Made by a program: the position numbers. Source: a virus (taxonomy: Duplodnaviria; Heunggongvirae; Uroviricota; Caudoviricetes). From it: 4,375 bases of DNA. The DNA is taken from the IMG/VR virus record IMGVR_UViG_2537561716_000016. One strand, written 5' to 3'. Shown piece after piece: positions 1 through 4,375 of this stretch (within the stretch, counting starts at the first letter, position 1; each line of letters starts with the position of its first letter).

Positions 1-3000
1 TCTCAGTATGTGTCACTGGCCTATACGGAGCGACTAAAAGAAGCCGGATTACTGGCATCAACAGGGAGTACAGGCGACTCGTGACAACGCGATGGCGAGA
101 GCATCAATGGTCTTTACAAAGCGGAGGTAATACACCGTAAGAGCTGGAAAAACCGTGCAGAAGTGGAACTGGCCACACTAACGTGGGTGGACTGGTATAA
201 CAATCGACGATTGCTGGGAAGGCTGGGCCATACTCCTCCGGCAGAAGCAGAAAAAGCTTATTATGCTTCCATCGGAAACGATGATCTGGCAGCCTGAGTT
301 CACAGATAAAACACTCTCCAGGAAACCCGGGGCGGTTCATTAACGCCGGAATAATCCAGTCATTCACTGCACCGCGCCTTGATCACTCCCGCAAGCCGGA
401 TATGGCGCGAGAAAAACTTGTGCAACTTCTTGGCGATGTTCCCCGGATAGAACTGTTCGCCCGTCACACCTCGCATGGATTTGATGTCTGGGGTAACCAA
501 TGCGGAACACCATCCATTGAGATGGTTCCGGGTATTGTTAAATTTCTGGAGAAAACCAATGAGCGAAAAAACGACGTTGACAAAGGCATCACCAGTTGAA
601 TTAAGGCAGTGCCTGGAAATCGCAAATCAACTTGCCAGAAGTGGAATACGCTTTGTTCCGATCCCGATCACAGCAGATACAGAACTTCATCTGTTTGGTG
701 AAATTCTTTCCCGAAAGCTGGATGAACTGGAAAAGCTGGTAGAAGAAGCTGACACCTCACCAATCGCATAACACCCCCACCGACATTAAAATATCAGGAG
801 AAAAAAATGAACGCCGTACTCACAGAATTGAACAAATTAGGAAAAGCAACAGCCGACAGCATTTCTAAAGGTCTCAATATTGATTTGAATGACGTCATTG
901 ATACGCTGTGGAAGTTGAAAAACCAGGGGATCGTAAAGGTAAAAAACGGCATCTGGCAGGCAGTAGAGGGAGTTGGAAGCAAAACAGATATTGATTCAGT
1001 TCAACCAGTTCAACCAGTTCAGCCAGTTCAGCCAGTTCAGCCAGTTCAGCCAGTTCAGAACAACATTATAGGTGACCTGCTACGTAAATCACGGAAAGAA
1101 GCGCGCCGCGCCGGGCGGAAACAGAAACGATGGGAGGGTGCATGTAAGGCGTTGCAAGAACTGAATAAATACCGTGACTTGATCAACGAATTGTCAGAGT
1201 GAACGTAGCGGGAATCCACGTCCTTTAGGGCGTGGATGATATCAGGCTGTTGAAATACATGTAGAAAAGGAGCGCATACTATGGAAGTCAACTTAATGAC
1301 CGAAAAAGAGGTTTCTGATTTGTTACAAAAAAGGCGCACAGCTTTGTATAATTTGCGAAAAAAACACGGATTCCCGGAACCAGTACTTACTCATCCGGCG
1401 CGATATAGTCGTCAGGCCGTTGAACAATGGCTTAAAGCCGGAGGAATTAACCGAGCTGTTTAGCGTGCCAGAAAATTTTATCAGCATACAACTCATACGC
1501 ATCTTTCTGTTCCGACAACCAGTCGTGTTTATTATACACGGCCATAACTCCCCCAAGTTCATGCCCCAGCATTTTTTCAGTGACGTGGGGCATAATTCCT
1601 TCCCCAGATAAATTCGTTACCAGAGAACGCCTAAAATCATGCGTTCTCCATTCAGGAATATCAATTTTCTCCCTTAACTTTTTCATGTACAAATTAGCCG
1701 ACGAACGATCAATAGGTTTATCTATTTCCTGCCCGGGGAATAGCACATCAAAACCCGCATTAAGCAATCTCTCGATATAAGGTTTAACCTGAGTGAATAC
1801 CGGACGCCGGATAATATTCCCCATTTTTGAATGCTCTTTTGGGGTTGTCCAGACCAGATCTTCCATGTTGAACTCACTGGCTGTCGCGAGACGTAGCTCA
1901 GAAAGTCTGGCCCCCCATAGCAATAGCAATTGATGTAACACCTTGTTGGAAGTAACTACTTTTGAGTTCTCCAGCGCCAGCCAAATTTTTGCCAGTTCCG
2001 TATAGGTAAGTACACGACTCCCTACATCTGGTTTTTTCCCAATATTCTTAACACTAAGCTTGAGTAATTCGCATGATGGGATTAACTGGCGGCTGATACA
2101 CCAGTTAATAACTGAACGCAGTTGTAACAACAAAACACGAGCCTTTTTCTTGTTGAGGCTTTCTTGTTTGTCAAAGAAACGAGCCCATGCCGATACTGGG
2201 ATACTGGCAACTGGCGAGCCTTCAAACTGTGTGTACATAGTGTTGTACACGACGGATCTGTAAAGCGTCTGTGTATTGGGTTTCAGATCAGTAACATACT
2301 TATCCCACCACTGATCCAGGCATTCTTTTAATGTCAGTTCGCCGTCACTGGGCGCAAAATAATTTTTAGGGTTAACTCCCTTCATGTACAATGCGCGCAT
2401 CTCACCGACGATAACACGCGCGTCCTTCAGTGAAGTAGACGGATAGCGCCCGACAGTAAGACGTACTGGCTTACCATTCCAGCGATAACGGTACTGAAAC
2501 GTGATAGTTCCTGCTGGAGTAATCCGCACACTTAACCCGTCACCATCGGTGATTTCAGCAGGGCCAGAGTAGGGTTTTCCGTAGAGGCCTCGTAGTTTGG
2601 TGTCGCTCAGTGCCAATGCTTTATATCCTGTACACAAGTTTATAATGTATTCTGTACTCAATATGTACGCATTAGCAAGTGAACAAAACACTTTTCAACG
2701 CAAAAGAAGATAATCAACCATGAACAAAAACAAACTTACACCTTGATTTTAAAACCATAAAGACGGTATTATCAGTCATATGGTGAACAACCAAAATCAA
2801 TACGCAACAATGTCCTCTTAGTTAAATGGATATAACGAGCCCCTCCTAAGGGCTAATTGCAGGTTCGATTCCTGCAGGGGACACCATTTATCAGTTCGCC
2901 TCCATCCGTACCAGTCCGCAAAATCCCCTGAATATCAAGCCTTCCGTAGATTCACAGTTCGTCATGGTTCGCGTCAGATCGTTGACAGCCGCACGCCATG

Positions 3001-4375
3001 ACGGGTAAAAAGTGGATAAAATAATTTTACCCACCGGATTTTTACCCATGCTCACCGTTAAGCAGATTGAAGCAGCAAAGCCGAAAGAAAAACCATACCG
3101 CCTACTCGATGGTAATGGCCTGTACCTTTATGTCCCTGTATCAGGGAAAAAGGTATGGCAGCTTCGCTACAAGATTGACGGTAAGGAGAAAATCCTGACC
3201 GTCGGAAAATATCCGCTTATGACTTTGCAAGAGGCAAGGGATAAAGCATGGACTGCGAGGAAAGACATCTCGGTTGGCATCGATCCGGTAAAGGCGAAAA
3301 AGGCTTCGTCTAACAACAATTCCTTTAGTGCGATTTACAAGGAATGGTACGAGCATAAGAGGCAAGTCTGGTCAGCCGCCTATGCGACTGAACTTGCAAA
3401 AATGTTTGATGACGACATTTTACCTATCATCGGCGGCCTTGAAATTCAGGATATTGAGCCGATGCAACTGCTGGAAGTAATCCGCAGATTTGAAGATCGC
3501 GGGGCAATGGAGCGAGCCAACAAAGCACGCAGAAGATGCGGCGAGGTTTTCCGTTACGCTATTGTCACCGGAAGGGCTAAATATAACCCGGCACCTGACC
3601 TTGCTGAAGCCATGAAGGGATACCGCAAGAAGAACTTCCCGTTTTTACCTGCCGACCAGATCCCGGCATTCAACAAAGCACTTGCAACATTTTCAGGAAG
3701 TATCGTATCTCTCATTGCGACCAAAGTTTTACGCTACACAGCACTAAGAACGAAAGAGCTTCGTTCCATGCAATGGAAGAACGTCGATTTTGAAAACAGG
3801 ATTATCACCATCGAGGCCAGTGTGATGAAGGGACGCAAGATTCATGTGGTTCCGATGTCGGACCAGGTTGTTGAACTTCTCACTACGCTAAGCTCCATCA
3901 CTAAACCAGTATCAGAGTTTGTTTTTGCCGGGCGCAACGATAAGAAGAAGTCAATCTGTGAGAACGCTGTACTGCTTGTGATCAAACAAATCGGCTATGA
4001 AGGTCTGGAAAGCGGTCACGGATTCAGGCATGAATTCAGCACGATTATGAACGAGCACGAATGGCCTGCTGACGCTATTGAAGTGCAACTAGCACATGCC
4101 AACGGCGGATCTGTGCGTGGGATTTACAACCATGCTCAGTATCTCGATAAGCGCAGAGAAATGATGCAGTGGTGGGCGGACTGGCTTGATGGGAAGGTGG
4201 AGTAGTTATTACAACGATTCTTATAAAAAAGAAAAGCCTTGCACATATAGCAAAGCTTTTCACTTCTCAGGATTTCTTACACCAAGAAACCATCAACAAT
4301 AACAAAATGCAATTATTATATGTTAACTACATATGCATTTCATTAAAACCAATCATAAATGCTTATCATACTTTA

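Follow-up and report, generated by a model that had tools for sequence, protein, structure and literature searches.

The window, meaning the whole 4,375-nt stretch of DNA analysed here, contains a single tRNA-Arg gene with the anticodon CCT (ARAGORN), which scores 63.4 bits against the Rfam tRNA model; no Rfam family other than tRNA is detected in the window. As described in the original prediction, this gene, argW, is flanked by two different P4-type integrase genes, and the coordinates of all three hold at 1447-2616 (-), 2812-2886 (+) and 3048-4205 (+), with spacers of 195 bp (2812 - 2616 - 1) and 161 bp (3048 - 2886 - 1). Chromosomes of E. coli O157:H7 match the window at 99.7-100% identity, and the closest genome, which supplies the NZ_AP026097.1 coordinates of the attachment repeat discussed below, shows 0 mismatches and 12 gap positions across it. 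At least 140 complete E. coli genomes carry the same arrangement as one uninterrupted stretch, which excludes an assembly artefact. The features of the window are collected in Table 1.

Table 1. Features of the 4,375-nt window and the evidence for each.
Feature	Coordinates	Strand	Basis
IS1203/IS629 (IS3 family) 3' end, in a prophage gene; transposase C-terminus ends at 297	1..337	+	RefSeq; alignments
MT-A70 adenine methyltransferase 3' fragment, IS-interrupted	338..599	+	RefSeq pseudogene, 'missing N-terminus'
Early-left prophage gene, DUF1382 family	559..771	+	Pfam PF07131, E = 2.4e-27; RefSeq CDS; Phi24B homologue vb_24B_4c
DUF1627-family prophage gene	807..1202	+	Pfam PF07789; phrog_1888, E = 5e-70
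Excisionase (Xis, recombination directionality factor), Phi24B type	1281..1463	+	Phi24B Xis identity; Pfam; phrog
Phi24B-type tyrosine integrase of Stx2a prophage, 389 aa, TTG start	1447..2616	-	Phi24B Int identity; Pfam; catalytic residues
Phage-derived P arm, all DNA between int and tRNA	2617..2810		Without K-12 similarity; identical in free-phage attP
Candidate sigma-70 promoter, TTGATT-18 nt-TATTAT, toward argW	2743..2772	+	Consensus scan
Crossover core of Stx2a prophage, attR copy, TGTCCTCTTAGTTAAATGGATATAA	2811..2835		25-bp exact repeat; att comparison
argW, tRNA-Arg(CCU)	2812..2886	+	ARAGORN; Rfam; 75/75 identical to K-12 argW
Attachment core of IntS element, argW 3' end	2864..2886		K-12 CPS-53 annotation; far-end repeats
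intS, integrase of CPS-53/KpLE1 (Sakai Sp16-type) P22-like prophage remnant	3048..4205	+	98% identical to K-12 IntS

The left part of the window consists of prophage genes, one of which is disrupted by an insertion sequence. In RefSeq, an MT-A70 methyltransferase gene is split here by the transposase of an IS3-like IS1203, and alignments with genomes that lack this IS copy begin at window position 338; an intact 'adenine methylase' occurs in VT2phi_272. The DUF1627 gene carries a 9-bp tandem repeat at 997-1058 (6.9 copies, Tandem Repeats Finder) that encodes (PVQ)n, and at least part of the 12 gap positions relative to the closest genome falls within it (131-aa versus 134-aa product). In that genome, the prophage is a complete 57.7-kb lambdoid element with regulatory, replication, lysis and morphogenesis genes, IS1203 insertions and the genes for stx2a A and B, with both stx and the far junction located outside the region covered by the window. 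With 0 mismatches and 12 gap positions between the two, the element in the window probably has the same content.

The upstream integrase is 97% identical (379/389 aa) to the Int of Phi24B (ADN68388), and RefSeq annotates the same 389-aa tyrosine recombinase at 1447-2616 with its TTG start at 2616. A longer open reading frame beginning at GTG 2691 most likely corresponds to the start discredited by 5'-RACE in Phi24B, where mapping placed the int transcription start 46 bp past the old start codon (PMC3064807); if that codon is the equivalent of GTG 2691, the int transcript would begin near 2645 here. Both integrases contain the Pfam domains PF00589 (Phage_integrase; E = 2.5e-17 upstream, 1.4e-38 downstream) and PF13356 (Arm-DNA-bind_3, DUF4102; E = 3.6e-17 and 2.2e-25), while the SAM-like core-binding domain PF14659 clears the cut-off of 22.6 in IntS and is weak in the upstream integrase, where it scores 19.5 bits. 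The predicted architecture of Arm-DNA-bind_3 followed by a core-binding domain is that of P4-type integrases, and the depositors' notes for Phi24B and phage 86 likewise record a 'P4 integrase conserved domain'. The two proteins are only 23-24% identical, in line with the earlier statement that they clearly differ in sequence. An alignment of both lineages nevertheless retains R237, K264, H326, R329, H352 and Y361 (upstream numbering) as invariant columns, so that the full R-K-H-R-H-Y set of catalytic residues, whose absence had been named as a possible objection, is present in the upstream reading frame, and both predicted products are assigned to the tyrosine recombinase/phage integrase superfamily. 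The neighbouring 60-aa Xis shares 56 residues (93%) with Phi24B Xis (ADN68389), whose excisionase function has been shown experimentally (PMC3064807), and matches Pfam HTH_17 and the excisionase family phrog_66. It converges on int with a 17-bp overlap at 1447-1463; the same overlap is found in Phi24B (int 236-1405, xis 1389-1571), and a 3' overlap of int and xis has been noted for argW-inserted Stx2a prophages (PMC4587872).

The site used by the upstream element is defined by comparing the four attachment sequences. Positions 2812-2835 are nt 1-24 of argW, comprising the 5' strand of the acceptor stem and the D arm, to which T2811 is added in this strain. A second copy of the resulting 25-bp repeat adjoins yfdC 57,720 bp away in NZ_AP026097.1 (L003:21001), outside the window. 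On the right, the prophage ends where K-12 homology sets in, at the tRNA 5' end (about 2811), while at the left boundary beside yfdC the first 24 nt of argW are followed by phage DNA; comparison with K-12, a genome without the upstream cluster, thus places the edges of the element at the argW 5' end and at the yfdC-side stub. The DNA at 2617-2810 has no similarity to the yfdC-argW spacer of K-12 and is identical in the free-phage attP of P27, phage 86 and Lyz12581Vzw. Joining the P arm of the window to the core and to the P' arm of the far end reconstructs an attP that is contiguous and 501/501 identical in P27 and phi345/346/349, and 93-94% identical in phage 86 and Lyz12581Vzw, with a P arm that is essentially invariant and a P' arm that diverges. 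The 24-mer GTCCTCTTAGTTAAATGGATATAA is common to K-12 attB, attL, attR and three diverged attP sequences, and the 24/25-mer at 2811-2835 is the only sequence shared by attB (K-12), attL (yfdC side), attR (window) and attP (free phages). In GenBank, HQ424691 already labels the repeat overlapping the tRNA-Arg 5' end as attL, and LC616031 describes it as a 'duplication due to insertion'.

These data point to a route of integration. The integrase recombines a phage attP whose 24-bp core is identical to argW nt 1-24, with the exact cleavage points probably lying inside this core. Integration puts all of the prophage upstream of argW, whose sequence is restored unchanged, while a stub of the first 24 nt stays behind with the native promoter beside yfdC at the far prophage end. 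It is because the phage brings its own copy of the 24 nt that the prophage comes to lie 5' of an intact argW, with the integrase adjoining the tRNA and diverging from it. The gene in the window is intact but hybrid, as nt 1-24 may come from the phage or the host depending on the crossover point and the remainder is host DNA. The convergent Xis would give directionality to excision, and int would be expressed in lysogens from its own promoter, as shown for Phi24B; this promoter should lie on the minus strand of the P arm. In Phi24B, int is constitutively expressed, recombination is IHF-independent and the crossover site is 24 bp long; the minimal attP lies between 350 and 427 bp (smallest working construct 427 bp) and the minimal attB between 62 and 93 bp (shortest working attB 93 bp, 49 + 24 + 20) (PMC7581858, PMC3064807). 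The Phi24B core is probably the argW 24-mer, judging from a Phi24B attP segment that is 98% identical and from the published length (PMC7581858).

The original prediction had correctly placed the upstream element away from the tRNA 3' end, but its premise that tRNA-targeting elements must sit 3' of the gene does not hold here, as the core is argW nt 1-24. Its observation that the 3' end has no second copy in the window is accurate and extends to any piece of at least 12 nt on either strand. This negative carries no information, however: the repeat that matters is that of the 5' end, whose partner is found beyond the window. It had been missed because only the 3' end was searched for and because the other copy of the 5' core is about 58 kb away. 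The proposed search of the wider contig for a repeated core recovers this copy, 57.7 kb away and next to yfdC. An attachment site elsewhere in 2617-2811 and unrelated to the tRNA, one of the two explanations put forward earlier, would fit the position of the integrase 5' of the tRNA and the lack of any kind of att-marking repeat within the window, but it is very improbable given that all of 2617-2810 is phage P arm, which free phage genomes carry in one piece with the core and the P' arm. The four-way comparison refutes it in favour of 2812-2835 (plus T2811) as the sole common sequence, a site that GenBank records already contain.

The other earlier suggestion, a decayed or rearranged remnant that reached its position by inversion or inter-prophage recombination rather than by site-specific integration, gains some plausibility from the frequent recombination among O157 prophages and from the IS1203 copies in this one. 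It is equally improbable, as both prophage junctions are precise with the same core on each side, the junction is identical in 211 genomes and at least 113 phage records, and the 57.7-kb prophage of the closest genome has a full lambdoid gene set including stx2a. Less probable still is that the minus-strand integrase and its neighbours are core genes conserved at this chromosomal position: the presence in many O157:H7 genomes is all that speaks for it, and the phage-int/argW junction is accessory, occurring in only 211 of 5426 complete E. coli genomes, with the others showing only the 75-nt tRNA match. In K-12, yfdC occupies the position of the integrase, 75 bp upstream of argW. The preferred reading, with no contradicting evidence in the analysed data, is almost certainly correct: in the window, the integrase-proximal end of a Stx2a-converting lambdoid prophage of the Phi24B/PA2/VT2phi_272 type joins argW in an O157:H7-type E. 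coli, and an older CPS-53/Sp16-type prophage remnant comes next with its integrase end.

For the downstream element, the earlier assignment to the classical arrangement is confirmed, with the element 3' of argW and bounded by repeats of its 3' end. IntS matches its K-12 counterpart at 377/385 aa (98%), at the same 161-bp spacing from argW. The K-12 annotation starts CPS-53 at argW nt 61 and places a repeat of the last 15 nt, CTGCAGGGGACACCA, at the far end (pawZ). In an O157-type genome, a degenerate 22-nt copy with a 1-nt deletion, TTCGATTCCTGCAGGG-ACACCA, lies about 8.56 kb downstream (L008:8726), and P22-like ejection and needle genes are found behind intS. The downstream element uses the classical site in the last roughly 15-23 nt of argW; since the upstream element uses nt 1-24, the 75-bp gene provides two non-overlapping attachment sites for two integrase lineages. 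The argW-intS junction is present in 1873 complete genomes. The proposal of two independently acquired elements at an integration hotspot is supported.

In lysogens, argW may depend on a promoter other than its own, as the 195 bp preceding it in the window consist entirely of phage DNA. Entry of the phage at the 5' end leaves only P-arm DNA in front of the gene, and the native promoter region remains at the yfdC end of the prophage. The sigma-70 candidate in the P arm has 9/12 consensus matches, with 3 sites found in the scanned region versus 1.1 expected, and may replace the native promoter. Its position in the near-invariant P arm does not discriminate, because Int arm sites and the int promoter explain this conservation equally well. 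At the yfdC-side junction, a terminator scan finds no consensus terminator; a strong hairpin (-21 kcal/mol, ViennaRNA) lies 90 bp past the stub (L003:21115-21143), followed by a weak T-tract. It is conceivable, if rather doubtful, that AGG-decoding argW is transcribed, if at all, from a phage-supplied promoter such as that at 2743-2772 while the native one fires into the 24-nt stub, that argW expression could in consequence be altered by lysogeny with a major family of Stx2a phages, and that this 5'/D-arm mode falls outside the three classical tRNA sublocations. These sublocations, reportedly defined by Williams in 2002, are the anticodon loop, the T loop and the 3' end. A promoter in the phage arm would bear on the expression of a rare-codon tRNA.

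The junction is also of diagnostic value. In typing, an Stx2a phage seated in argW marks the more virulent clade 8 of O157:H7. The locus is relevant to public health, and the window holds the diagnostic phage-argW junction. The published primers argW-C (at 2397) and argW-D (2839-2858) give the published 462-bp amplicon inside the window, and argW-A/argW-B give the published 583 bp at the far prophage end. Insertion of Stx2a phages in argW has been reported (PMC4587872, PMC8309913), as has that of non-Stx phages (PMC8309913). This analysis demonstrates the layout of all four attachment sites (attB, attP, attL and attR) and the protein identities. The arrangement itself is ordinary and not new. 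With a Stx2a prophage in the first 24 bases of argW and an older remnant at the last bases, it is the argW locus familiar from E. coli O157:H7, and publications or annotations already cover the integrase and excisionase as well as the 24-bp core and the two junctions.

Among known systems, the upstream element is close to the argW-inserted Stx2a prophages (TW14359/EC4115, PA2, PA8, PA28, VT2phi_272; the 'A' typing site), with 100% identity over int, P arm and core (as in at least 113 phage records, many of them Stx2a-converting), the same attL/attR annotation and exactly fitting typing primers; it differs only at the strain level, in the IS1203 position and the 12 gap positions relative to the closest genome. 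Phi24B (vB_EcoP_24B) shares Int (97%), Xis (93%), an attP arm and core that are 98% identical, the 24-bp crossover core, the TTG start, the convergent overlapping xis, and an int that is inverted relative to lambda (PMC3064807, PMC7581858), but it differs by about 3% amino-acid divergence, slightly different flanking early genes and the IS1203 in the methylase gene here. Neither argW nor tRNA is named for the Phi24B site in PMC7581858 or PMC3064807, and the enzymology of Phi24B and the argW typing literature could be cross-referenced through the identity of the 'primary attB' with the argW 5' end. The downstream element shares IntS (98%), the 161-bp spacing and the argW 3'-end core with CPS-53/KpLE1 of K-12 (IntS/TorI), whereas the cargo differs (gtr-type yfdG, yfdH and yfdI in K-12 versus P22-like ejection/needle genes in the O157-type genome) and its far-end repeat is degenerate compared with pawZ. 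We take it to resemble the Sakai Sp16-type remnants and the Sf6-like, argW-integrating P22-like phages. As in classical tRNA-targeting systems with a P4-like domain architecture, the upstream phage carries a replacement tRNA fragment that preserves the gene sequence after integration. Unlike classical 3'-end elements, it lies 5' of the tRNA with the 5' 24 nt as its repeat; because the replaced fragment is this 5' part (acceptor strand and D arm), the prophage lies in front of the intact gene, whose promoter it displaces.

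The tRNA-Arg gene is bracketed by two different integrases, and the coordinates and strands of this arrangement in the original prediction agree with ARAGORN, Rfam and the ORFs, as do the spacers of 195 bp (upstream) and 161 bp (downstream) between the tRNA and the integrases. The full length of the window is 99.7-100% identical to E. coli O157:H7-type chromosomes; NZ_AP026097.1 is the closest, differing by 12 gap positions and no mismatches. The gene order annotated there by RefSeq is an IS1203 transposase end splitting the MT-A70 methylase, DUF1382, DUF1627, a small helix-turn-helix gene, the tyrosine recombinase, tRNA-Arg, intS and P22-like DNA-ejection genes. 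The IS1203 copy is absent from most related O157:H7 genomes, whose alignment begins at 338. In K-12 this tRNA is argW, separated by 75 bp from yfdC upstream and by 161 bp from the intS gene of cryptic prophage CPS-53 downstream.

Features of the tRNA-Arg locus and the adjoining prophage end
Feature	Coordinates	Strand	Remarks
IS1203/IS629 3′ end	1-337		inserted in prophage MT-A70 adenine-methylase gene
Convergent 60-aa ORF (xis)	1281-1463		Phi24B excisionase match
Tyrosine recombinase, 389 aa	1447-2616	-	TTG start; mechanical ORF reaches GTG at 2691
tRNA-Arg(CCT)	2812-2886	+	ARAGORN, sole call; Rfam 63.4 bits
Integrase (intS), 385 aa	3048-4205	+	

The upstream element attaches in the 5′ part of argW, comprising the acceptor 5′ strand and D arm, and not at the tRNA 3′ end. 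Similarity between K-12 and the window starts exactly at the tRNA 5′ end (the right boundary), and 2617-2810 is entirely foreign to the K-12 yfdC-argW spacer. At the left boundary in NZ_AP026097.1, yfdC lies 57.7 kb leftward and is followed by its native downstream spacer, argW nt 1-24 and then phage DNA, the first gene of which is an 8.4-kb ORF resembling those of short-tailed Stx phages, e.g., phage 86 and P27. A wider search for a repeated core recovered the 25-nt partner copy in this genome; the exact block common to both junctions is TGTCCTCTTAGTTAAATGGATATAA, at window 2811-2835 and at 21001-21025 of the yfdC-side stretch (L003), separated by 57,720 bp. As the leading T is replaced by C in one diverged phage, the universal core is the 24-mer equal to argW nt 1-24. 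The predicted attP, in which the core is flanked by the phage arms of the window and of the far end (501 nt), is 100% identical and uninterrupted in the genomes of P27 and phi345/346/349 and shows 93-94% identity to phage 86 and Lyz12581Vzw. Four att sites with a shared core are the signature of Campbell-type integration. The boundaries and the attP match thus place the core in argW nt 1-24 instead of at the site proposed within 2617-2811; the tRNA 3′ end occurs only once in the window, as previously noted. The GTTA...TAAC D-stem dyad around the D loop is a plausible candidate for core-binding symmetry, and the crossover point is likewise putative.

The other possibility raised for the upstream element, a rearranged or decayed remnant, is contradicted by the closest genome. 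Besides stx2a A and B and Q, the prophage there has cI/cro-type regulators and genes for replication (O/P), lysis, terminase, portal and capsid, along with three IS1203 copies. Judged by this content, the element is very probably a complete Stx2a prophage. Dozens of Stx2a-converting phage records contain its int-to-core segment at 100% identity; VT2phi_272 has an annotated attL of 25 bp that overlaps the 5′ end of tRNA-Arg, and the LC6160xx records have a 24-bp 'duplication due to insertion'. The published primers for this junction fall at window 2397 and 2839-2858 and yield the published 462 bp, and the far-junction primers yield the published 583 bp. Two reports place PST2 and PST3 Stx2a phages, among them that of TW14359, in argW (PMC4587872, PMC8309913). 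Two tRNA-Arg genes and one tRNA-Ile gene also lie shortly before stx2a in the prophage interior (19709-19958 of stretch L009 in NZ_AP026097.1), so that a phage inserting into host tRNA-Arg(CCU) also imports tRNA-Arg genes. A 9-bp tandem repeat (CAGTTCAGC, 6.9 copies) at 997-1058 encodes (PVQ)n in the DUF1627 gene, and differences in the length of this gene (product of 131 aa in the window and 134 aa in NZ_AP026097.1; gene of 378 nt in VT2phi_272) suggest that repeat copy number varies between strains.

The upstream integrase and the 60-aa ORF are identical to the Phi24B integrase and excisionase at 379 of 389 and 56 of 60 residues, respectively. Phi24B int is inverted relative to lambda, starts with TTG and has its own promoter; lysogens express it, and directionality comes from a separately controlled Xis (PMC3064807). 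The TTG start (= window 2616) is supported by 5′-RACE in Phi24B, which mapped the start of transcription 46 bp downstream of the former start codon (PMC3064807); VT2phi_272 and some other records annotate a 414-aa integrase from GTG at 2691. For Phi24B, the crossover site measures 24 bp, the shortest recombining attB 93 bp (49 + 24 + 20) and the minimal attP between 350 and 427 bp, with IHF dispensable (PMC7581858). As in Phi24B, int and xis are convergent with 3′ ends overlapping by 17 bp (1447-1463), and the transcript of either gene must therefore run antisense into the other; according to Yin et al. 2015 (PMC4587872), the int 3′ end overlaps an adjacent ORF in PA2, PA8 and PA28. The words argW and tRNA are absent from the Phi24B enzymology papers, where the site is the 'primary attB' with a 24-bp core (PMC3064807, PMC7581858), and excerpts of the O157 typing papers name the same site argW without discussing the Phi24B integrase work (PMC3519850, PMC4587872); the two literatures seem to lack cross-reference.

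Because phage DNA makes up the entire 195 bp upstream of argW, we infer that its transcription in lysogens must start in the phage arm. A consensus scan gives a candidate promoter directed toward the tRNA (TTGATT-18-TATTAT, 2743-2772). The P arm, between int and the tRNA, is invariant among diverged phages and the P′ arm, at the yfdC end, is divergent, an invariance that could be equally well explained by Int arm sites and the int promoter. At the yfdC-side junction, a strong hairpin (GCATGCCCCG...CGGGGCATG, -21 kcal/mol) followed by TTCTTT (L003, 21115-21143) lies 90 bp past the orphaned 24-nt stub of argW, on the strand that the displaced native promoter of argW reads; a scan of this junction for consensus terminators did not call it. 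The phage arm may drive, alter or silence argW expression.

The downstream integrase is 98% identical to K-12 IntS and conforms to the textbook tRNA 3′-end arrangement originally predicted, as 3′-end repeats bound the element. K-12 annotation begins CPS-53 at argW nt 61 and ends it at pawZ, where the 15 terminal nt of argW are repeated. The O157-type genome has a degenerate version of the argW 3′ end (TTCGATTCCTGCAGGG-ACACCA) ~8.56 kb downstream, which bounds an IntS remnant carrying genes for P22-like ejection and needle proteins. K-12 CPS-53 also contains 16 nt identical to the argW T-arm region (TTGCAGGTTCGATTCC) just upstream of torI (position 776 of stretch L010), ~300 bp before pawZ; this match could be left over from another att copy or be due to chance. 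Arm-DNA-bind_3 and Phage_integrase Pfam domains are found in both integrases, which share 23-24% identity and the catalytic R, K, H-x-x-R, H and Y; alignment confirms all of these in the upstream ORF (R237, K264, H326, R329, H352, Y361).

Both elements are accessory. The phage-int/argW junction occurs in only 211 of 5426 complete E. coli genomes, and the - strand integrase is not a core gene at this position; the argW-intS junction occurs in 1873 complete genomes, and both are contiguous, as in the window, in at least 140. argW is a double hotspot with non-overlapping cores at nt 1-24 and roughly nt 53-75. Taking the four att sites and protein identities from this analysis and integrase and Xis function and regulation from the literature, the locus is the already known site of Stx-phage insertion at argW, where a Phi24B-type integration module lies next to an IntS prophage remnant. 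The sole departure of the upstream element from classical tRNA integration is its use of the 5′ part of the gene, which is already annotated in databases.
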